This document shows, one piece after another, positions 31,630-41,632 of a DNA stretch of 64,000 nucleotides. The stretch lies in contig JBQTGV010000068.1 of assembly GCA_052390515.1 (NCBI GenBank), positions 16,760 to 80,759 of the forward strand. The letters are read 5' to 3'. Numbering within the stretch: position 1 is the stretch's first letter; the number at the start of each line of letters is the position of its first letter. The position numbers were made by a program, and so were the translations under genes. The stretch is from Candidatus Eiseniibacteriota bacterium. GTDB lineage: Bacteria > ARS69. The notes below the pieces were generated by a model. That model was given only the letters and a program-made list of their open reading frames with translations, had not been told where the DNA came from and ran no database searches.

Positions 31630-33533
31630 AGGCGGCGCCGCGGGAATCGTCCGGCGCCCTCCCGCGCACGATCCCTGGTGCGGCGCAGGGCGCCGCCGCT
31701 CTCGCCGCCGTCGCGCTGCTGGAGATCGCCGGGCATGCGCGCTCCGCGCCTGCGCTTCTGTCTCCGCTGCGCGACCTCTCGCTCGTGGCGTCCGCCGGCG
31801 CGTTGCTCGGGGCCTTCCTGGGGCTCCTCCGGGGCGCCCGCCCGCTCGCCTTCCTCTCCCCCTTCGGGGTCGCGCTCGGCGCCGGGATCGCGCTGCACTT
31901 CTGGCTGCGCACCGTCTCCGGGGCCGGCGTCCTGGAGGGCGGAGGCTCGCGCGACGCCCTGCGCGGAGCGGCCGGGCTCGCCGCTGGTGCAGTCCTCGGC
32001 CAGCTCCTCGGCTTCGCTCTGGGGCGAACGCGCGCGCTTCGCCCCCCGCCCGCCGGCATCTCGATCGCCTTCGTCGTGCTGCTGTCGCTGCCCGCGCTCC
32101 TCCCCGCCCCGAGGCCGCAGCTCGACGAGTCCCGGAAGAACCTGCTGCTGCTGTCGATCGACACGCTGCGTGCCGATCGCCTCGGCGCGTCGGGGCATCC
32201 GGACGGCCTGAGCCCGCATCTCGACCGCCTGGCCAGGACCGCGACGACGCACGTCGGTGCGGTGACCCCGCTGCCGCGCACGCTGCCGTCCATGTCCTCG
32301 GTGATGACCGGACTGCCTCCGCACTCGCACGGCGTGCGTGACAACTTCCACTACGCGCTCGGCGAGAGGGCGGAGACGCTCGCCGAGGACCTTGCGCGCC
32401 GCGGCTGGGCCACCGCGGCGGTGAACTCGAATCCGGTCCTGTCCCACGACAGCGGCATCTTCCAGGGGTTCGCCTCCGCCAACGACCGCGGCGACGACTG
32501 GTCGCGCCTGGGACTCGTCCGCGGAGCGTCGCGCATCGCCACGCTTCTGGCCATGCGCCGCGGCGATCGGGACGCCGTCATCACCGAGCTCGCCTTGTCC
32601 TGGTTGGCGCGCCGTCCCTCCGGACGGCCCTTCTTCCTCTGGGTCCACTGGCTCGCGCCGCACATGCCGTACGAGCCGTCGTTCCCCGACGATCGCCGCT
32701 TCGATCCGGCGTACGAAGGCGCGCATCTCCGCGCGCTCGACTATGGCGGCATCTCCAAGGGAGACATGACCTACCGCAACCCGCTGTCCCCGCGCGAGCG
32801 CGAGCATGCCGTCCGGCTCTACGACGGGGAGGTCGCGACGGCCGACCGGGCCGTGGGACGGCTGCTTCGCTCGGTGGAGCGCGACCGGCTGCTCGACGAC
32901 ACGGTCGTCGTGCTGGTTGCCGACCACGGCGAGAGCCTCCTCGAACACGGGTACTTCTTCAACCACGGCGATTTCGTCTACGGGCCCGCGGCGCACGTCC
33001 CGCTCGTCGTGCGGGACCCGCTCGCTCCGGCCCCGATCCTCGACACCGCTCCGGCCTCCCTGAACGACGTGCGCGGGATGATCGCGGCGAAGCTGGAGGA
33101 CGTCCCCGCGCCACCGCGCCCGGACGCACTCTTCTGCGAGTCGGACTTCTGTCGCTTCCCCGACCTGAACGACCGGCTCGGGCTCCTCCTCCCCCTGGAG
33201 GTCGCGCAGGACACCGGTCCGATTCCGGACTGGAAGGAGCGCTGGGAGGAGCAGGCCATCCGGGCGAAGCAGCGCTTCGTGCAGCGCGAAGGGTGGCGAC
33301 TGGTCCGCTCGCCCCGGAAGGACGGCGACGCGCACGAGCTCTTCGACCTGGCCCGCGATCCGGGCGAGACCACGAACGTCGCCGGGGAGAACCCGGAGCG
33401 GTTGGCCGAGCTCGCGCTCCTGCTGGACCGCTGGATCTCGGCGGGCGAGGAGGCCGACGACACCGGTGAGGTGCGCGCGCCGGACGAGGACACGCAGGAG
33501 CAGATGCGCGCTCTCGGTTACGTGGGCCGCTGA
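31626..33533 (+). CDS. Membrane-anchored sulfatase-fold (alkaline-phosphatase superfamily) hydrolase/transferase with a Thr nucleophile
   Basis: About 5 N-terminal TM helices, then LLLLSIDTLRADRLG, PLPRTLPSMSSVMTGLPPHSHG (Thr where sulfatases have Cys/Ser), and VVLVADHGESL. TTG 31626 overlaps the upstream stop (TTGA). Confidence 0.75.
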   Translation: MKAAPRESSGALPRTIPGAAQGAAALAAVALLEIAGHARSAPALLSPLRDLSLVASAGALLGAFLGLLRGARPLAFLSPFGVALGAGIALHFWLRTVSGAGVLEGGGSRDALRGAAGLAAGAVLGQLLGFALGRTRALRPPPAGISIAFVVLLSLPALLPAPRPQLDESRKNLLLLSIDTLRADRLGASGHPDGLSPHLDRLARTATTHVGAVTPLPRTLPSMSSVMTGLPPHSHGVRDNFHYALGERAETLAEDLARRGWATAAVNSNPVLSHDSGIFQGFASANDRGDDWSRLGLVRGASRIATLLAMRRGDRDAVITELALSWLARRPSGRPFFLWVHWLAPHMPYEPSFPDDRRFDPAYEGAHLRALDYGGISKGDMTYRNPLSPREREHAVRLYDGEVATADRAVGRLLRSVERDRLLDDTVVVLVADHGESLLEHGYFFNHGDFVYGPAAHVPLVVRDPLAPAPILDTAPASLNDVRGMIAAKLEDVPAPPRPDALFCESDFCRFPDLNDRLGLLLPLEVAQDTGPIPDWKERWEEQAIRAKQRFVQREGWRLVRSPRKDGDAHELFDLARDPGETTNVAGENPERLAELALLLDRWISAGEEADDTGEVRAPDEDTQEQMRALGYVGR

Positions 33534-34723
33534 TCCCGCGCGGCCACGAGCGTGCGCGCGCGGGCCAGAGCCGCGGCTCCGAACCGCGCGACGATGGAGT
33601 CCTCCGCCTCGTCGAGCCGGTCCCTGCGCGCCAAGTCCTCGGGCCCGCCGGTAGTGGCCCCACCGAAGAGCTCCAGCTGGGGTGCGTCCACGAGCCCCGC
33701 CAGCCCCACGCCGAGCAGGCGCACCGCCGAGCCGCGACGGTCGACGCCCCGGAAGAGGTCGGCGGCGGCCCGGAAGAGCGTGGTCGCCGAGCTGGTGGGC
33801 GCGGCGAGCGTCCTCGACCGCGAGAGCGTGGTGAAGTCGGCCAGGCGCACCTTGAGCTGCACGGTGCGCCCCGCAAAGCCCGCGCGGCGCGCCCTTCGCG
33901 CCACGGACTCGGCCAGCGCCAGCAGCACGCCCTCGAGCACGCCCGCGTCCCCGACGTCCTGGGGGAAGGTCGTCTCGCGGGAGAGGCTGCGGGCGCGCGC
34001 ATCGGGAACGACGGGCCGGTCGTCCCGGCCCTCGGCCAGCGCGATCCACCTCTCCGCGGCGCCACCCAGCGCGTGCGACAGGCGGGCCGGATCCGCGGCG
34101 GCGAGCGCCGCCATCGTGCGGACGCCCAGCCGCTGCAGCGCCGCCCGCGTCGCCGGGCCCACGCCCCACATGCGATCGAGGGGCAGCGACTGCACGAAAC
34201 GGCGGGCGTCGTCCGGCGGCACCACGACGAGTCCGTCCGGCTTGGCGTGCGCCGAGGCGAGCTTCGCCACGAACTTGGAGTCGGCGAGGCCGACCGACGC
34301 GGTGAGCGCGAGCTCCTTGCGGATCCTACGGCGAAGCGCCACTCCGATCTCGCGTGGCTCTCCCAGTAGCCGCCGTGTTCCGGTCAGATCCAGGAACGCT
34401 TCGTCGAGTGAGAGGGGCTCGACCGCCGGCGAGAACTCCGCGAAGACGCGCCGCAGCGTCCGCGACGCGGTCGTGTACTTCGCGTGGTCTCCGTGGATGA
34501 CGACGAGGCCCGGGCACCGGCGAACGGCCTGGGCCATCGGCATCGCGGAGCGGACCCCGAAGCGTCGCGCCTCGTAGGATGCGGAGGACACGACGCCGCG
34601 CCGGTCCGCGGCGCCGCCCACCGCCACGGGCTTTCCCGCGAGAGACGGATCGTCGCGCACCTCCACCGACGCGTAGAACGCGTCCATGTCCACGTGCGCG
34701 ATGACCCGGGTCCAATCCACCAC
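33518..34723 (-). CDS. dinB: DNA polymerase IV (Y-family)
   Basis: VIAHVDMDAFYASVEVRDDPSLAGKPVAVGG, SYEARRFGVRSAMP, PLSLDEAFLD, LTASVGLADSKFVAKLAS, LPLDRMWGVGPAT. GTG 34723 lies 14 nt after the upstream stop. Confidence 0.9.
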   Translation of the reverse strand: MVDWTRVIAHVDMDAFYASVEVRDDPSLAGKPVAVGGAADRRGVVSSASYEARRFGVRSAMPMAQAVRRCPGLVVIHGDHAKYTTASRTLRRVFAEFSPAVEPLSLDEAFLDLTGTRRLLGEPREIGVALRRRIRKELALTASVGLADSKFVAKLASAHAKPDGLVVVPPDDARRFVQSLPLDRMWGVGPATRAALQRLGVRTMAALAAADPARLSHALGGAAERWIALAEGRDDRPVVPDARARSLSRETTFPQDVGDAGVLEGVLLALAESVARRARRAGFAGRTVQLKVRLADFTTLSRSRTLAAPTSSATTLFRAAADLFRGVDRRGSAVRLLGVGLAGLVDAPQLELFGGATTGGPEDLARRDRLDEAEDSIVARFGAAALARARTLVAARDQRPT

Positions 34724-34737
34724 GGTTCCGTCGCCGG

Positions 34738-36153
34738 TCAGTGCTCGATCATCCGCCAGTACACTTCCGGATCGAAGTCCGGACTGTTCTCCGCATCGTG
34801 GCAGCCCCGGCAGCTGTTCATCAGCAGTGCCGCGCCGTAGCTGCCGTCGCGGGCGTGGGTGGTGCCCTTGCCGTGGCATACCTCGCACTGCACGTTGACC
34901 AGTGCCGGCGAACCCTGAGCGTGCGGGCTGTACCCGGCTGGATCGCCATGGCCGGTCACGTGGCAGCCGAAGCACTCCGGCAGCGCCTCCGTCCCGGCGA
35001 TCTCCAGCGTCTGGAAGGCGCTGGAGTGCGGCGTCTCCAGCCAGAGCCCGTACTCGCGCTCGTGGCATCCTGCGCAGCTCTCCGCTCCCACGTACCAGTG
35101 GCCGTCCGCGGCGCGCCGTTCCTGTGCCTTCGCCACGGCCTGCTCCTTCATCAAGTCGTTCAGATTCCGCTGGAACACGTCGACGAGCTCCGCCGTGTCG
35201 GGATCCTCGGCGGTGTCCCGATCGAGGACCGCCTCCTCCGCGGCGATTCCGAGCACGTCGCCGTTCTCGACGGCCACCTGCGCGACCCCGAGCGCCTGGC
35301 CGCGGTCCCCCGCGACGACGTACACGGCACCCCCGTGCTCGGCGAGCGTCCGGCCGCGCCCCATCGCGGCGGAACCGACGACGACGACGTCGACCTGGCC
35401 GGCCAGGTCCTCGCCGAGGGCCTGCGCCGCCTCGAGCGGCATGTGGGCGAGTAGCACGACGAGATCCGCGTCCCGCCGCAGGCGCGCGAGCACCGGCTCC
35501 AGCGACGGGACCGACTCGGCGAAGTCCACCTCCGCGGTGTGCGTCGTATCCGCGGGCGGCTTGCGCGTGACCGCGGTGATCCCCACGCGAATGCCGGCGC
35601 GCTCGACGATCCTCGAGGAGGGCAGCAGCAGAGATCCGCCCGCCGCGCGCAGGTTCGCGGAGACGAAGATCCCGTCTGGGGCCGCCAGGGACCGGAGGAT
35701 CTCCGCGGGCAGACGAAGGTCCTCTTCGCCGAGCGTGGCGGCATCGTAGCCCTGACGCTTCATCACTTCGACGAGGAAAAGGGCGCGCGCCTCCCAGGTC
35801 GCCGACTGGTTGCCGGTGAAGCCACCGGCGTCCACCAGGACGACCTCGCCCTCGTCACGGTACGCGGCGATCCGACTGGCCCGCCGGGCCAGTCCCCCTC
35901 GGGGGCTTCGGTGTCAGCCGCAGGGCGTCGTCTCGCCCATCACGGACTGCGAGGACAACACCACCAGTTCGGGGCGGCGTCCGTCTTCGAACAAGTCCGT
36001 CGCCGGGGGACGGTCGATCTCCTCGAGGAGCGTCCCGATTTCGCGCTCGAGCGCGGCCTTCGCCGAGTCGGCGTCCGCTCCGGCGCCCAGCTCCGCGGGA
36101 GCGGCTCCGGCCAACGCGAAGGACGCGACCACGACGCGAAGCGGGACGTGCAT
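34738..36153 (-). CDS. Exported tetrahaem c-type cytochrome with a metallophosphatase-like N-terminal domain. One in-frame TGA at 35916-35914 (candidate selenocysteine, otherwise a pseudogene)
   Basis: ATG 36153 with SD GGAGGTGG. Signal peptide MHVPLRVVVASFALAGAAPA. The frame runs continuously through the TGA (…GETTPCG-TGA-HRSPRGGLARRASRIAAY…). Four CXXCH motifs are present (CAGCH, CFGCH, CEVCH, CRGCH). Confidence 0.6.
35870..35916 (-). other. Candidate SECIS-like structure immediately 3' of the in-frame UGA
   Basis: RNA: UGA CACCGAAG CCCCC GA GGGGG A CUGGCCC GGC GGGCCAG. The perfect 7-bp stem (35876-35892) has its apical loop 28 nt after the UGA. Not folded computationally. Confidence 0.35.
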
Positions 36154-36289
36154 GAACCACCTCCGTGACACCGAACGCGGCAACCCACAGATCGGCGCGG
36201 GGTTCCGCCTCGTCGAGCGACCGATTCTAGCAAACGCGGATTCGGTTCGTCTTGTACACGCGCTTGACACGGGGACCGCCGCGGTGCTC

Positions 36290-36495
36290 TGATCCGCCCG
36301 TGCCGCCGGTTCCGGCGGCACAGACAGCTCGAGGAACGAAGGGAAGCCGGTGCGAATCCGGCGCGGCCCCGCCACTGTGAGCGGAGACGCCTCCCGCAAG
36401 ACGCCACGGCACGTAGCCGGAAGGCGCGGGATGCGGATGACCCGCGAGCCAGGAGACCGACTCGGGCATTCACGGGTACCGCCTTCGAGGGTGAG
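36290..36495 (+). promoter_or_regulatory. Cobalamin (B12) riboswitch aptamer
   Basis: Matches the conserved core AGGGAAGCCGGTGCGAATCCGGCGCGGCCCCGCCACTGTGAGCGGAG (B12 box GCCACTG at 36371-36377) and the downstream AGCCAGGAGACC (36447-36458). Located in a 444-nt gap upstream of an operon containing a TonB-dependent receptor. Confidence 0.85.
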
Positions 36496-36561
36496 GCAGG
36501 TGACGTCGATCTCGGGTAGCGCGTTCGTCCGCACTCCTCCCGACAGCTTCATCGGATCGCC

Positions 36562-36592
36562 GCTCCTCCTTTTCATCGAGGCCGGGAGGAGC
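36562..36592 (+). promoter_or_regulatory. SD-sequestering hairpin (riboswitch expression platform)
   Basis: GCTCCTCC (36562-36569) is complementary to GGAGGAGC (36585-36592), which contains the ribosome-binding site 5 nt before ATG 36598. A second anti-SD-like CTCCTCCC lies at about 36534-36541. Confidence 0.6.
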
Positions 36593-36597
36593 AAGTC

Positions 36598-38190
36598 ATG
36601 CCTTCTCGACTCCGATGGGGAATACGCGTTCTCGCGCTGATTCTCCTGGCACGAACCGCCACCGCCTCGCCGCCGGCGCGGTCGGCGTACGTTCTCTCGG
36701 CGAACGACGCGAAGGTCACGCGCGTCGACCTGGACACCGGCGCGGTACTCCCCGACGTGACGACCGCCGGCGCCTTCGCGAACCGCATCGAGCGGGACGC
36801 GGACGGCCGGCTGGGCGCGATCGTCTCGTCGGGATCGGACGAGGTGGCCCTCTTCGACTTCCCCACGGAGACGGTCTTCGGAACCGTGCCGCTTCCGGCG
36901 GGATCGAATCCGTGGACCGCGGAGATCGTCGGAACGCGCGTCTTCGTCACCTGTCTGCTGACCGACACGCTCTACGAGATCGACGCGACGACCCTCGCGG
37001 TGACGGACAGCGCCGCCACCGGCACGGCGCCGGAAGGAATCGCGGTGACCGGCGGCCACCTGTACGTCGCGAACACGGGGTTCGACTTCGGCACGTTCGG
37101 GTACGGGCCGGGCACGGTCACGGTGCTGGATCTCGACGATCTCTCCGAGGTCGCTACCGTTCCCGTTTCGGTGAACCCGCAGGACTGCCTCGTCGCCTCC
37201 GACGGGAACGTCCACGTGGTGTGCACGGGGAACTTCGGTCCGGTCACCGGATCGATCGACGTGATCGATCCGGGAAGCAAGACCGTCATCGCGTCCCTCC
37301 CCGTGCCGGCATACCCGGGCGGCGGTGCGGTCTCGCCGTCCGGGTCGGTCCATCTCTCGGTGACGACGCCCTCGTTCGGCTCGGAGATCTGGACGTACGT
37401 CGCCGCTTCGCTCGTGCTCGTGCACGACGGATCGAACCCGCTGCTGCCGTCGTTCGACTTCTACGGCGAGCCGGCCGCGACCGCGGCGCAGGAGCTCTTG
37501 GTGCCGGACTTCTCCGCCGATCTGCTCCTCGTGGAGATGCCGGAGGCACCGGGAGCTCCCACCGCGGTGCTCGTGGGCGATGGTCCGATCGACGTGGCGG
37601 TCATCGATGATCCGGGTCCGGTGCCCATCGTCCTCCGCGGCATCTCCGCCGAGAACGTGGCGTCCGGGATCCGCCTCTCGTGGAACGCGCTGCTCGAGGC
37701 GGACGTCGCCGGATTCGTCGTGGAGCGTTCCGTCCCGGCCCGCGGCGAGACCCGGCGAGTGGCCGACGATCTTCCGGCGGCCCGGAACGCGGAGTGGACC
37801 GACGAGGCCGTCACCGACGACGAGCGTTACGTGTACCGCGTGGGCGCCGTCGGCTTCCGCGGCGGGCTCATCTGGTCGGAGGAGACGTCGATCGTGCGCC
37901 GCAGCGCGCCGAGCCGGCTCGCGTTCGCCCGCGTGCGCCCCAACCCCGCGCGCGGACCCGTCTCCTTCGACGTCGTCGTCCCGCGGGATGGTGCCGTCGA
38001 GCTCGAGCTGCTGGATGCCGCCGGGCGCCGGATCGCGCGGCGAGCAGTGGGCGGCGTGCCCGCGGGCTCGGTGACGTTCGAGTGGGACGGAAGGGATGAC
38101 ACCGGCACGGCGGTAGCGTCAGGCATGTACTTCGCGAGGGTCCGGTCCGGCGGGGAGGTCGCCGTCGAGCGCGTGCTCCGCGTGCGATGA
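36598..38190 (+). CDS. Secreted YVTN-type beta-propeller protein with an Fn3-like module and a FlgD-Ig/T9SS-type C-terminal domain
   Basis: Signal peptide MPSRLRWGIRVLALILLARTATA. Propeller-like repeats (AYVLSANDAKVTRVDL, VFVTCLLTDTLYEID, LYVANTG, VHVVCTGNFG). CTD RPNPARGPVSFDVVVPRDGAVELELLDAAGRRI...VTFEWDGRDDTGTAVASGMYFARV. Confidence 0.75.
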   Translation: MPSRLRWGIRVLALILLARTATASPPARSAYVLSANDAKVTRVDLDTGAVLPDVTTAGAFANRIERDADGRLGAIVSSGSDEVALFDFPTETVFGTVPLPAGSNPWTAEIVGTRVFVTCLLTDTLYEIDATTLAVTDSAATGTAPEGIAVTGGHLYVANTGFDFGTFGYGPGTVTVLDLDDLSEVATVPVSVNPQDCLVASDGNVHVVCTGNFGPVTGSIDVIDPGSKTVIASLPVPAYPGGGAVSPSGSVHLSVTTPSFGSEIWTYVAASLVLVHDGSNPLLPSFDFYGEPAATAAQELLVPDFSADLLLVEMPEAPGAPTAVLVGDGPIDVAVIDDPGPVPIVLRGISAENVASGIRLSWNALLEADVAGFVVERSVPARGETRRVADDLPAARNAEWTDEAVTDDERYVYRVGAVGFRGGLIWSEETSIVRRSAPSRLAFARVRPNPARGPVSFDVVVPRDGAVELELLDAAGRRIARRAVGGVPAGSVTFEWDGRDDTGTAVASGMYFARVRSGGEVAVERVLRVR

Positions 38191-40106
38191 TGTTCGCTCA
38201 CGTTCTGGCTGCGCTTGCCGCCGGATTCGCTGCCGGCGCGGACGTGGCACCGCCGCCGGCCGGCTCGATCTGGGATCTCCCGGAGGTGGAGGTTCGCGCG
38301 GACGCGCTTCGCGACCCGATGGCGCCGTTCCCGATCTCCGGACGCCGCATCGGCCCCGAAGAGGTGCAGCGCCGCGCCGGGGGCGACCTGCGCGACGTGC
38401 TGCTGCCCCTCGCGGGACTGCGCGTGACGTCGCCCGGCGGACCGTGGGCGGGCTCGTCGGTGTCCCTGCGCGGGTCGACCGCCGACCAAGTGCTGGTCCT
38501 AGTCGACGGGAGGCGATGGAACCGCGCACAGGGCGGCGGCGTCGATCTCTCGACGATCGCCCTGTCCTCGGTGGAGAGCGTGGACGTGTTCCGCGGCGGC
38601 GCGTCGCCCTTCTGGGGCAGCGAAGCCATCGGCGGAGCGATCCTCGTGCACACCCGGCGCGCCGACGCGGGGGCGTGGAGCGTGCGCCTCGGTTCGGGAT
38701 CCTTCGGGGAGCGCTCGCTGGCGGCGAGCGCGGCGACGACCCTGCCCGCCCGCGGGTGGCGGTCGCTCGTCACCGGACAGCTCTTCGACACGTCCGGCGG
38801 CTACTCCTACGACGACGCCGCGCGCGGCGCGGAGCGAGCCGTGCAGAACGGCGACGTCCGCCGTGCGCAAGCCGACCTGCGCGCCGACGGCGGAGCCGGA
38901 CGGTTCACCGTGCGAGCCGACGTCGGCATCCTGGATTCCGAGCGGGGCGTTCCCGGCAGCGCCGAGTTCCCCACCCCCAGCGCGCGGCTCGAGGATCGGC
39001 GAGCCACGGCTGGACTGCGCATCGAGGACGCCTCGTCCACGCGGCGACCGGCCCTCGACGTTTCCGTGCTGCGACAGGTGCGACACTATCGCGAGAACGA
39101 CGAGATCTTCGGGCCGGTCGACGAATCCCACCGCAACCTCCGCGTGGAGGCCGATGCCGCCGCCGCAGGCTCGCGGCGAAGCCTGGCATGGCGCGCGGCG
39201 GCCGGCGCGGCGACCGATCGGCTGGACAGCACGACCGACGGGATCCGCCGGCGGGACAACGGCAACGCGCGCGGCCAGCTCTCGTACGACCGCCGCGTCG
39301 CCGGCATGGCCGTGCGCTGGATGCTGGCCGCCCGGCTGGACGTGACCGACGGATTCGCCCCGTCCGCCTCGCCGCGCGCCGGCGTTCGCATCGTGCCGTC
39401 GCCCGGCCGACTCGCGTTCTCCGCATCGGCCGGCACGTCGTACCGGACGCCGTCCTTCGACGAGCTGTTCTGGGCGCCGCGCGCGACCGCGGCGGGCAAC
39501 CCGCACCTCCGGGGAGAGCACGGGCGGGATCTCGACCTCGGCGTCGAGCTGGGCGCGCTGCCGCTCCGGGGCGCGCTGTTCGTCGGGGCCTTCGTGCGCG
39601 ACGTCGACGACCTCATCCAGTGGATTCCGGGCGCCTCGGGAATCTGGCGGCCGCACAACGTCGGGCGCGTCCGGATCTCCGGAGCCGAGGCGGAGGGCCA
39701 CGCGGGGGCGAAGCTCCCCCGCGGTGCCGGCGTGCGCATCTCCGGCTCCGCGACGCTGCTCGAAGCCGTGGACCGGACCGGGGAGCCGAACGTGGACGGC
39801 CAGAGGCTTCCTTACCGGCCGCAGTGGAGCGGAGCGGCCGCGGCCGTGCTCACCCACCCGGTGGTCGGGGAGCTGGAAGCGGCCTGCCGCCACATCGGCG
39901 ACGTGTACGTGACCCGGGCGAACACGAAGACCCTGCCGGGCTCGTTCGTCGTCGACGTGCTGTGGCGGCGCGTTCTCGCGCGGGGCGCGCGCGTCGACGC
40001 CGGCGTCACCAACGTGGGCGATGTCTTCGCGCGGGACTTCCGCGATTTCCCGCTCCCCGGGCGATCCTGGAACCTGGCCCTGACCTGGGAGAGGAGGCCT
40101 TCATGA
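38187..40106 (+). CDS. btuB: TonB-dependent outer-membrane receptor, probably cobalamin-specific (BtuB-like)
   Basis: Plug-domain motifs (DLPEVEVRA, DLRDVLLPLAGLRV, VSLRGSTADQVLVLVDGRRWN, VESVDVFRGGASPFWGSEAIGGAILV). Barrel with a C-terminal GRSWNLALTWE. Under the B12 riboswitch, with ATGA overlaps on both sides. Confidence 0.8.
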   Translation: MMFAHVLAALAAGFAAGADVAPPPAGSIWDLPEVEVRADALRDPMAPFPISGRRIGPEEVQRRAGGDLRDVLLPLAGLRVTSPGGPWAGSSVSLRGSTADQVLVLVDGRRWNRAQGGGVDLSTIALSSVESVDVFRGGASPFWGSEAIGGAILVHTRRADAGAWSVRLGSGSFGERSLAASAATTLPARGWRSLVTGQLFDTSGGYSYDDAARGAERAVQNGDVRRAQADLRADGGAGRFTVRADVGILDSERGVPGSAEFPTPSARLEDRRATAGLRIEDASSTRRPALDVSVLRQVRHYRENDEIFGPVDESHRNLRVEADAAAAGSRRSLAWRAAAGAATDRLDSTTDGIRRRDNGNARGQLSYDRRVAGMAVRWMLAARLDVTDGFAPSASPRAGVRIVPSPGRLAFSASAGTSYRTPSFDELFWAPRATAAGNPHLRGEHGRDLDLGVELGALPLRGALFVGAFVRDVDDLIQWIPGASGIWRPHNVGRVRISGAEAEGHAGAKLPRGAGVRISGSATLLEAVDRTGEPNVDGQRLPYRPQWSGAAAAVLTHPVVGELEAACRHIGDVYVTRANTKTLPGSFVVDVLWRRVLARGARVDAGVTNVGDVFARDFRDFPLPGRSWNLALTWERRPS

Positions 40107-41632
40107 AGCTGAGCGCGTTCACCGTGTCGACCGCCGTCCTCGCGGCGCAGCCGGCGCAGTCCGTCGTCGCCTGGGGACCGGAGGCGAACCTCTCCCTCAC
40201 CGCGACGGACTCCGAGACCGGACTCAATCACCGCCCGATGGCGATCACCTCGGACGGCACGTTCCACATCGTGTGGGCGGAGAAGGACGCCCCGAACCAG
40301 AACTACCGCGTCTGGACGAGACGACTCGAGAGCGGCACGTGGAGCGCGTCCGAGGTGATCGTGGACTACCTCGCCTCCGATCCGGGCACGAGCGGCGGGG
40401 CGAAGTATCCCTCGCTCGCCGCCGCCGGTGACGGGAGCCTGCACCTCTTCTGGCACGACTACCGCGTGGCCGGGATCAACAACATCGAGATCTTCACGAA
40501 GGCACGGGAGGCCGGCGGCGCCTGGGATCCGGAGCGGGTGGCGGACGTTCGCCTCACGGCCACGAGCCACCCCGAGACGCTCGGCGACAACGGATACGTG
40601 CCGACGCCGGGCGCGACGGCTGCCGGCGCGATGCACGTACTCTGGTACGACTTCCGTTACGATGGCCAGAGCGCCGAGATCCTGTCCAAGACCCGGCCAC
40701 CGGGAGGCTCCTGGGACCTCACCCCGGGAGACGCGGCGGACGCGCGCGTCACGCTCGACGCGGATCACTCGGAGCTCGTCGCCGCCGACGCGGACGCCGC
40801 CGGACGCGTGCACGCGGTCTGGCGCAGCGCCTCGGCCGGCACCCGGATCCTCTACGCCGAGCGCGATCCCCTGACCGGTATCTGGTCGAGCCCGATTCAG
40901 GTGGACGTCGCGGGCGCGGTGGCCGGTGCTCCCGCGCTCTCGCTCGACGGCGCCGGCCGCGTTCACGTCGTGTGGCCCGACTCCCGCAACGGCGGGCGTG
41001 CGCTCTGGACCCGGGTCCGCGAAGCCGGTGGCGCGTGGGGAGCGGAGTCGCGGCTTACCCGGCCCGCGGACGCCGCCGACGAACCTTCGCTCGACGCCGC
41101 GCCGGACGGGACGCTGCACCTCGTCTGGCAGGACGGTCGTGTCTCGCTGCTCTCGCCGAAGGTGTTCCACCGCGAGAAGGCACCGGCCGCGGCGTGGGAT
41201 ACGACGTACGCGTCGGACACGCGAGTGTCGCTCTCCACGGCGACCGCGGTGCGCTCCTCGGTGCTCTCGGACGACGACGGCGGCATCTTCGTCTGCTGGA
41301 AGGACCTCCGCACCGGCAGCTACGACATCTTCCTGCGGCGCGGCGGTCCCGCGGGCACCGGTGTGCCGGCGGCTCCGCCTTCACGTCCGCTGCTGGTTGC
41401 CGCGCCCAACCCGACGTTCGGCGAGCCCGTCCGCTTCGTGCGCGACGCCGTCGCCGCGCCCGCCGAGCTGACGATCCACGATGCGCTGGGCCGTCGTATC
41501 CGCACCCTGCGGGAGGGCGGCGAGTCCGCGTCCTGGGACGGCTCGACCGACGCTGGCGGGCGCGTGCCGGCAGGCGTCTACTTCGTCCGGTGGGGCGCCA
41601 CCGGCGCGGTGCGGGTCACGGTGATCCGATGA
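40103..41632 (+). CDS. Secreted BNR/sialidase-like beta-propeller repeat protein with a FlgD-Ig/T9SS-type C-terminal domain
   Basis: Signal peptide MKLSAFTVSTAVLAAQPAQS. Repeated blades (GTFHIVWAEKD, GSLHLFWHDYR, GAMHVLWYDFR, GRVHAVWRS, GRVHVVWPDSRNG, GTLHLVWQDGR, GGIFVCWKDLRTG). CTD APNPTFGEPVRF...LTIHDALGRRIRTL...WDGSTDAGGRVPAGVYFVRW. Confidence 0.75.
   Translation: MKLSAFTVSTAVLAAQPAQSVVAWGPEANLSLTATDSETGLNHRPMAITSDGTFHIVWAEKDAPNQNYRVWTRRLESGTWSASEVIVDYLASDPGTSGGAKYPSLAAAGDGSLHLFWHDYRVAGINNIEIFTKAREAGGAWDPERVADVRLTATSHPETLGDNGYVPTPGATAAGAMHVLWYDFRYDGQSAEILSKTRPPGGSWDLTPGDAADARVTLDADHSELVAADADAAGRVHAVWRSASAGTRILYAERDPLTGIWSSPIQVDVAGAVAGAPALSLDGAGRVHVVWPDSRNGGRALWTRVREAGGAWGAESRLTRPADAADEPSLDAAPDGTLHLVWQDGRVSLLSPKVFHREKAPAAAWDTTYASDTRVSLSTATAVRSSVLSDDDGGIFVCWKDLRTGSYDIFLRRGGPAGTGVPAAPPSRPLLVAAPNPTFGEPVRFVRDAVAAPAELTIHDALGRRIRTLREGGESASWDGSTDAGGRVPAGVYFVRWGATGAVRVTVIR

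Follow-up and report, generated by a model that had tools for sequence, protein, structure and literature searches.

Within a 64,000-nucleotide stretch of DNA from a Candidatus Eiseniibacteriota bacterium (contig JBQTGV010000068.1, positions 16,760 to 80,759; hereafter the window), two open reading frames (ORFs) lie in the same frame on the minus strand, the first ending at a TGA and the second carrying four CXXCH haem-binding motifs. Are these two genes, the remains of one, or a single gene in which the TGA is translated? Comparison with homologous sequences indicates that positions 36153..34738 (minus strand) are very probably one gene, which encodes an exported selenoprotein of the UshA-like CxU family and in which UGA is read as selenocysteine (Sec).

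A reading frame that continues past TGA

Read as one unit, the complete gene (34738..36153, minus strand) comprises 471 codons, with Sec as codon 80, plus a terminal TGA at 34740-34738. A Shine-Dalgarno-like sequence, GGAGGTGG (36164-36157, minus strand), precedes it, with a spacer of 6 nt between GGAGG and the ATG at 36153-36151. Residues 1-20 (MHVPLRVVVASFALAGAAPA; 36094..36153, minus strand) are predicted to form a signal peptide of the secretory (Sec-pathway) type: a basic n-region is followed by a hydrophobic core and A-P-A, residues 7-20 have a mean Kyte-Doolittle hydropathy of +1.9, and the N-termini of relatives resemble this region. From the ATG the frame runs to ...VMGETTPCG and there meets TGA 35916-35914, the third codon of a Cys78-Gly79-Sec80 (CGU) motif at 35914..35922 (minus strand; context ...TTPCG-UGA-HRSPRGGLARRA). 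Past this point the same frame reads HRSPRGGLARRAS... (HRSPRGGLARRASRIAAYRDEGEVVLVDAGG...) and continues for 391 codons with no further stop or frameshift, through the ORF with the four CXXCH motifs, which automatic calling begins at an internal GTG (35835). An earlier note on this DNA, made from the sequence alone, had described the upstream initiation and export signals, the frame that crosses the TGA, the internal GTG start and the lack of a Shine-Dalgarno sequence or signal peptide in the downstream piece, and our re-reading of the sequence agrees on each.

Automatic ORF and gene calling reads the locus as two genes: an exported peptide of 79 aa, and a haem protein initiated separately at GTG 35835 or nearby. 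However, the downstream part lacks both a ribosome-binding site and a signal peptide, and yet bears four CXXCH motifs, at which attachment of c-type haem (cytochrome c maturation) requires export. Conserved family motifs (GGLARRA...VDAGG) are encoded in the stretch from the TGA to the GTG, and homologues with Cys in place of Sec are single polypeptides of 444-481 aa, with which the window gene is collinear. We consider the probability of two genes to be vanishingly small. Global recoding of TGA can also be excluded, as the earlier note had argued, because TGA terminates genes elsewhere in the window: it ends 19 of the 29 gene-like ORFs, the selenoprotein gene itself included. The G+C content of the window is 72%.

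The TGA column in homologous genes

Strict alternation between UGA and Cys codons at a single column is the classical Cys/Sec pair signature by which selenoproteins are defined (PMC13188914). A first scan of contigs with the joined protein recovered two Gemmatimonadota-labelled metagenome-assembled genomes, approximately 54% identical, with TGA at the same column (ETAPCG-TGA-GRAPKGGLARRAG), and a Pirellulales homologue with PCGC at the Sec column. In a protein-database search with a 278-aa core query, the 13 closest matches were proteins of 341-384 aa that begin just past the TGA column; more distant matches were the single polypeptides of 444-481 aa, reading ...TSPCGCHTPKGGLARRA.... The DNA of seven of the short matches contains in each case a called ORF of 78-88 aa just upstream, ending PCG-TGA. 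Public calls at the L004-L010 loci (proteins P0002-P0013) split the gene into ORFs of 78-88 and 341-384 aa, labelled 'hypothetical protein' or unnamed.

TGA is present at the identical column in nine of nine distinct closest relatives (39-90% amino-acid identity; separate JGI, ENA, NCBI and Logan assemblies), and a relative 88% identical to the window gene occurs in two separate samples (L006 and L007), with TGA in both. The full homologue set comprised 87 family loci, 80 of them added by a profile-based scan of genome contigs. At the Sec column 39 loci, from several phyla, have TGA, 29 have TGC and 19 have TGT (Cys codons, 48); none has TAA or TAG. The motif C-G-[C/U] is invariant in 86 of 86 aligned family proteins. 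Homologues with PCGC...GGLARRA, which the earlier note had mentioned, do exist among the full-length Cys forms, all of which have C-G-C at this point, and its suggestion that Cys or an in-frame TGA might align at this position in homologues is borne out across the set (TGA in 39 and TGC or TGT in 48 of 87).

The ratio of nonsynonymous to synonymous substitution rates (dN/dS), measured against the 88%-identical relative L006, is 0.26 over the 79 codons before the TGA and 0.13 over the 391 codons after it. By this sequence-based measure both halves of the window gene are under purifying selection.

These data bear on two alternatives that the earlier note had itself raised. According to the first, a TGC- or TGT-to-TGA mutation killed a Cys-type cytochrome gene, the downstream part of which is now decaying. 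The TGA is indeed a single substitution from the Cys codons used by 48 homologues, and in public gene calls the halves are two separate hypothetical proteins; but a nonsense pseudogene does not account for the same TGA in 39 loci of several phyla and in every close relative, always TGA and never TAA or TAG, nor for 391 downstream codons free of stops and frameshifts, dN/dS values of 0.13 downstream and 0.26 upstream, and a covarying hairpin (below). We give it a very slim chance. According to the second, TGA 35916-35914 is a sequencing or assembly error for TGC or TGT. Although the window is a single metagenome-type sequence, TGA occupies the identical position in independent assemblies from four data sources, L006 and L007 included, which makes the chance of an error minute. 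On the basis of the conservation of the column and the dN/dS values of 0.26 and 0.13, we rejected the pseudogene, the sequencing error and the two-gene reading alike.

A conserved hairpin downstream of the UGA

Bacterial UGA codons that specify Sec are followed by a selenocysteine insertion sequence (SECIS). In the window gene a candidate hairpin is formed by the core CUGGCCC-GGC-GGGCCAG (35892-35876), which two further outer pairs extend to 35894-35874 (element 35874..35894, minus strand). Its loop begins 28 nt past the UGA, the 7-bp core has a folding energy of -12.1 kcal/mol, and the structure overlies the codons for G-L-A-R-R-A-S-R. The earlier note gave the hairpin at 35876-35892 with a spacing of 28 nt, and both position and spacing hold. 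Constraints for bacterial SECIS (bSECIS) elements are a loop of 3-9 nt, G in the first two loop positions, a stem of 4-16 bp, a distance of 16-37 nt from the UGA and an energy of at most -7.5 kcal/mol (PMC13188914); the window hairpin satisfies all of them (loop GGC, stem 7-9 bp, 28 nt, -12.1 kcal/mol). Perfect hairpins with a 7-bp stem and 3-nt loop occur at 0.28 per kb in the window, and approximately 0.006 are expected in the 16-37-nt SECIS range. A second hairpin in the earlier note, CCCCC-GA-GGGGG, did not survive: its 2-nt loop is sterically impossible, RNAfold draws 4 bp, the register is not conserved among relatives, and RNAalifold did not predict it.

An ungapped alignment of 28 distinct Sec-form sequences was used for comparative folding. 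RNAalifold predicts the same 7-bp helix de novo, with double changes in four of the seven pairs, which, together with agreement with the bSECIS model, upholds the SECIS-like fold that the earlier note had put forward for checking. For the 9-bp structure 90% of cells are paired, compared to 31-50% with the 3' partner displaced by 1-3 columns, and none of 500 column shuffles reached either the observed covariation score or the number of double changes. The columns that covary correspond to the third positions of codons (Leu/Ala2 and Ala1/Arg2): Leu codons CUG, CUC, CUU and CUA pair with Ala codons GCC, GCG and GCU, and Ala codons GCC, GCA, GCG and GCU with Arg codons CGG, CGU, CGC and CGA. Covariation is thus at synonymous sites, and the compensation therefore acts on the RNA. 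Throughout the alignment, the loop reads G-G/U-N.

Since the peptide alone supplies part of the hairpin, Cys forms were taken as controls. With the stem held in a fixed register, its median energy is -9.4 kcal/mol in 27 Sec forms and +3.9 kcal/mol in 48 Cys forms (p = 5e-9). When only sequences encoding GG[LIV]ARR[AV] are compared, the means are -9.6 for Sec (n = 20) versus -3.4 for Cys (n = 8; p = 8e-5). The Eisenbacteria Sec form L033 has the perfect CUGGCCC-GGC-GGGCCAG, whereas the neighbouring Cys forms L091-L093 specify an identical peptide through sequences of the type CUCGCGC-GCC-GUGCGGC, which form 4-6 pairs with wobbles. These weak, G-U-wobbled hairpins over the LARRA codons (L091:1148-1207, L092:1148-1207, L093:1127-1186) belong to Cys forms nested in a Sec-dominated clade. 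From their sequence they look like fossil SECIS elements that persist, weakened, after replacement of Sec by Cys.

A covariance model built from the 28 Sec forms was tested on ten held-out Sec forms and on the Cys forms. Seven of the ten scored 70.4, 69.8, 61.3, 59.1, 57.9, 57.3 and 46.8 bits, compared to at most 34.4 bits for any Cys form; the other three scored lower (40.8, 35.5 and 25.4 bits; two labelled Deltaproteobacteria/Deferrisomatales and one Thermodesulfobacteriota). In the window the sole significant match is 35863-35925 (65.7 bits).

The hairpin in the common register is absent from four Sec forms, L064, L066, L083 and L089 (labelled Deltaproteobacteria, Deferrisomatales, Cognaticolwellia sp. 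and Thermodesulfobacteriota). L089, which is among the three lower-scoring held-out forms, carries another hairpin, of 8 bp and nearer the UGA (UCUUGGCG-GCGU-UGCCAAGA); in L064, L066 and L083 no convincing alternative SECIS element was identified. To judge from these sequences, SECIS elements of more than one design appear to serve the family.

With the bacterial SECIS consensus the window element shares a 3-nt apical G-G loop, an upper stem of 7-9 bp and the 28-nt spacing; its sequence does not resemble that of the E. coli fdhF SECIS. Unlike the consensus description, it lies within the conserved L-A-R-R-A codons, which dictate part of it. It is a clean example of a SECIS that shares its nucleotides with a conserved peptide motif and covaries only at synonymous sites. 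No Rfam family covers the element. Besides a riboswitch (below), the only local Rfam match was CRISPR-DR20, at 18.5 bits against a threshold of 42 (E = 0.7), which we dismissed as a chance match.

Membership of a catalogued selenoprotein family

A family listed as 'COG0737, UshA-like, CxU' appears in the 2008 Global Ocean Sampling (GOS) selenoprotein table of Zhang & Gladyshev, with 76 Sec and 92 Cys sequences (PMC2398784), and is included, with NF041198, in the prokaryotic selenoprotein tables of two reviews (PMC9312934, PMC13188914). The literature searched yielded only listings or passing mentions of this family and no functional work; neither this family nor Gemmatimonadetes comes up in Peng et al. 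2016. The family is large: a profile search of 1.84 billion cluster representatives returned 6,354 at E <= 1e-30. About one third of the best 150 representatives are ORFs truncated just after the CxU column, and Sec forms account for approximately 40% of the sampled family loci. Some representatives, among them P0045, P0046 and P0048 (1188-1207 aa), are approximately 900-1200 aa long and have the UshA-like/cytochrome unit at the C-terminus of a far larger protein, or two matched stretches.

The best NCBIfam match of the window protein is NF041198 ('UshA_like_PCGU, UshA-like (seleno)protein'; E = 1.6e-65), which extends over both domains (approximately positions 21-274 and, the best stretch, 357-517 of the 519-position model). 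The window protein shares with this family the position of P-C-G-U, the two-domain architecture and the alternation of Sec and Cys. A difference lies in its more degenerate N-domain, where SoxB and 5'-nucleotidase models score at most approximately 35 bits for the window protein, but 43-82 bits for six of eight other members (of the remaining two, L001 scores 25.8 bits and L038 gives no SoxB match). The Thermodesulfobacteriota members, which have the best NF041198 scores, differ from the window gene in their SECIS.

Scores with NF041198 separate the window's clade (221-241 bits; the Gemmatimonadota-labelled relative L001, 241) from other Sec forms (281-476 bits), among them Eisenbacteria L015 (281), Krumholzibacteriia (287), Fibrobacteraceae (291), L064 (357) and L089 (476). 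In a neighbour-joining distance tree of 86 sequences, computed without support values, the window gene falls in an all-Sec subclade, which is nested in a Sec-dominated clade that also holds a few Cys forms; the same Sec-dominated clade contains the above-cutoff NF041198 members L011, L013, L015, L064 and L089. The window protein thus has the P-C-G-U motif before a GG-x-ARR helix, the two-domain architecture and the tree placement of the UshA-like CxU family. We conclude that the window gene belongs, as a divergent and so far unannotated member, to a selenoprotein family already on record, and is not a new kind of system.

The clade of the window gene lies below the NCBIfam cutoff and annotation pipelines therefore keep missing the gene. 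One value of the result is as an annotation fix, since the window gene and all its close relatives are split in public calls. Recognition of the gene also gives a selenoprotein, and by implication Sec decoding, to a lineage of high G+C content, the nearest labelled relatives of which are Gemmatimonadota genomes assembled from metagenomes.

Evidence against Sec decoding, and the proposed mechanism

Several observations weigh against the interpretation developed here. The NF041198 score of the window protein, 221.6 bits, is below the curated cutoff of 275 bits; we therefore treat the protein as a homologue outside the equivalog threshold, from a divergent subclade. The local fold energy is unexceptional compared to shuffled sequence (z = -0.78). 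The series GCN-CGN-CGN-GCN, encoding Ala-Arg-Arg-Ala, is self-complementary, so that the hairpin is partly dictated by the peptide, and some Cys forms keep a weaker hairpin of 4-6 bp. The hairpin is convincing only together with the comparative data. E. coli SelA, SelB and SelD, used as tblastn queries, gave no selA, selB or selD match in the 64-kb window or across the 476 kb of related loci, and ARAGORN found no tRNA of any kind in the window. Among 69 flanking ORF fragments of Sec-form loci analysed with Pfam, no neighbour recurs across phyla (the most frequent domain, ABC_tran, is found in 4 of 69). The functional proposal made below, finally, is based on motif conservation and analogy only.

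If the organism has no Sec machinery, then the UGA might be read through as Trp, Cys or Gly by a near-cognate or suppressor tRNA, with stimulation by the hairpin. Downstream hairpins can stimulate read-through generally. However, within an invariant C-G-C motif the codon at this column is without exception either UGA or one for Cys, the hairpin matches a bacterial SECIS in its G-G apical loop and its spacing, and the family is curated as a selenoprotein; we regard read-through of this kind as improbable.

The preferred reading, insertion of Sec, follows the established bacterial pathway. UGA 35916-35914 would be decoded as selenocysteine, with the hairpin CUGGCCC-GGC-GGGCCAG working inside the coding sequence as a bacterial SECIS that recruits SelB-GTP-Sec-tRNASec to the ribosome. 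The product would be a precursor of 471 residues instead of a fragment of 79, which would be exported via its N-terminal signal peptide and would then receive four c-type haems at the CXXCH motifs.

Domain architecture and possible function

The N-terminal domain, approximately residues 60-340 (35134..35976, minus strand), resembles UshA and 5'-nucleotidases and has degenerate metal-binding motifs; it is followed by a cytochrome c554-like tetrahaem domain, approximately residues 349-471 (34741..35109, minus strand), with CXXCH motifs at 35076-35062, 34974-34960, 34887-34873 and 34812-34798. Pfam detects only PF13435 (cytochrome c554; 53.2 bits, gathering cutoff 20.8). Compared with the Protein Data Bank (PDB), the family profile matches both 2z1a (5'-nucleotidase N-terminal domain, E = 3.5e-29) and 1bvb (cytochrome c554, E = 3e-17). 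An AlphaFold2 (AF2) model of the Cys homologue P0018 has a predicted local distance difference test (pLDDT) score of 81.8, with the N-domain above 90 and the haem domain of low confidence, and Foldseek matches this model to CD73 and the 5'-nucleotidase 2z1a (E ~2e-21 to 4e-21).

In the window protein the metal ligands of this fold are replaced: D-x-H by S-x-M, G-D by G-G, and G-N-H-E by G-E-E-D. The metallophosphoesterase ligand columns are likewise unconserved across the family. Profiles and the predicted structure together show a 5'-nucleotidase fold without catalytic metal ligands, fused to a c554-like tetrahaem domain. With the ligands lost and unconserved, the window protein cannot be a nucleotidase; the presence of S-x-M, G-G and G-E-E-D in place of the ligands rules out a functional 5'-nucleotidase or metallophosphoesterase of the UshA, CD73 or SoxB kind. 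The SoxB model TIGR04486 scores 35 bits against a 550-bit cutoff. What the window protein shares with 5'-nucleotidase, UshA, CD73 and SoxB is the fold of the N-domain and the GG-x-ARR helix after the first beta-strand loop; in place of the C-terminal substrate-binding domain of 5'-nucleotidases it has the cytochrome domain. With cytochrome c554 of Nitrosomonas europaea (1BVB, PF13435) it has the four CXXCH motifs in common, and the Pfam score is above the gathering threshold, but here the module is fused to a Sec-bearing domain and the c554 equivalog model NF043010 scores 29.5 bits against a cutoff of 400.

Conservation in the N-domain is family-wide only at CG[C/U], GG, R90/R91 (0.91 and 0.86) and one further Gly, and CG[C/U] is the only invariant motif. 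On this sequence pattern the CGU loop is a conserved functional element of the N-domain. In the C-domain the conserved residues are the four CXXCH motifs and only three further His, H376, H433 and H471 (codons 35026-35028, 34855-34857 and 34741-34743, minus strand). As the conserved distal His number three and the haems four, one of the haems may be open, or may be capped by the CGU loop. The motif analysis thus points to the CGU loop, and to the haem without a conserved distal His, as the place to look for activity.

The nearest experimentally characterised analogue is MccSep/ExtKL (GSU2937-GSU2936) of Geobacter sulfurreducens, a periplasmic pentahaem selenoprotein polysulfide reductase in which Sec lies beside a haem with His/Cys ligation (PMC13510729). 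Common to both are a periplasmic multihaem c-type cytochrome, a single Sec, a UGA that gene callers take for a stop separating two ORFs, a hairpin resembling a SECIS no more than approximately 30 nt away, and alternation of Sec and Cys across homologues. The architectures differ: in MccSep a helical cap at the N-terminus holds the five haems and Sec belongs to a C-terminal Ig-like domain (D-G-U-P loop), whereas the window protein has four C-terminal haems and its Sec in an N-terminal phosphoesterase-fold domain (P-C-G-U). We saw no homology between the Sec-bearing parts of the two proteins; MccSep is an analogue, not a relative, and with four CXXCH and an N-terminal Sec, against five and a C-terminal Sec, the window protein was not assigned to MccSep/ExtKL.

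From motif conservation and this analogy, the CGU loop could be the redox centre of a periplasmic oxidoreductase wired through the haems, possibly acting on a sulfur or selenium compound, a role that we propose with low confidence. A more specific version, which we regard as doubtful, is that the UshA-like/c554 fusion is an uncharacterised periplasmic chalcogen oxidoreductase, in which a dead phosphoesterase scaffold offers a Cys-Gly-Sec loop to the haem without a conserved distal His. The catalytic haem would then be Sec-assisted and Cys- or Sec-ligated, convergent with MccSep, and substrates might be polysulfide, thiosulfate-type compounds or selenium oxyanions. If true, this would give a function to a widespread orphan selenoprotein that is abundant and has been listed since 2008.

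Neighbouring genes and other features of the window

Within positions 34500-36700 no promoter-like or terminator-like site was found. A scan of the whole window for in-frame TGAs with coding-like composition on both sides found two others, 13219 (plus strand) and 7119 (minus strand), each with coding-like G+C content at third codon positions (GC3) on both sides. Both were rejected: they lie in antisense frames rich in Arg, Ala and Gly, with an upstream G+C content at first codon positions (GC1) of 0.92-0.98.

Approximately 18 nt past the stop codon of the selenoprotein gene begins a dinB-type DNA polymerase IV gene (33518-34720, minus strand; IMS, IMS_HHH and IMS_C domains). The pairing with dinB is kept in every relative of the window's clade with enough flanking sequence, and co-transcription of the two genes is possible.

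Flanks differ among the Eisenbacteria-type Cys forms. In L091 and L092 a second Cytochrome_C554 protein is encoded before the gene and a PALP+CBS (cystathionine beta-synthase-like) protein after it, and in L093 the gene is preceded by one for a Cys_Met_Meta_PP enzyme. Such flanks may connect the gene to the metabolism of sulfur amino acids or sulfide; the window's clade shows no such connection.

On the other side of the selenoprotein gene, the divergent intergenic region contains a cobalamin riboswitch (RF00174; 36341-36458, plus strand; 88.3 bits, E = 1.8e-20). It is followed on the plus strand by ORFs at 36598-38190, 38187-40106 and 40103-41632, which encode a FlgD_ig protein, a TonB-dependent receptor (Plug and barrel) and a BNR/FlgD_ig protein. 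Led by the riboswitch, these ORFs probably constitute a B12-regulated operon for uptake across the outer membrane, and the same gene order recurs beside the selenoprotein gene in relatives.

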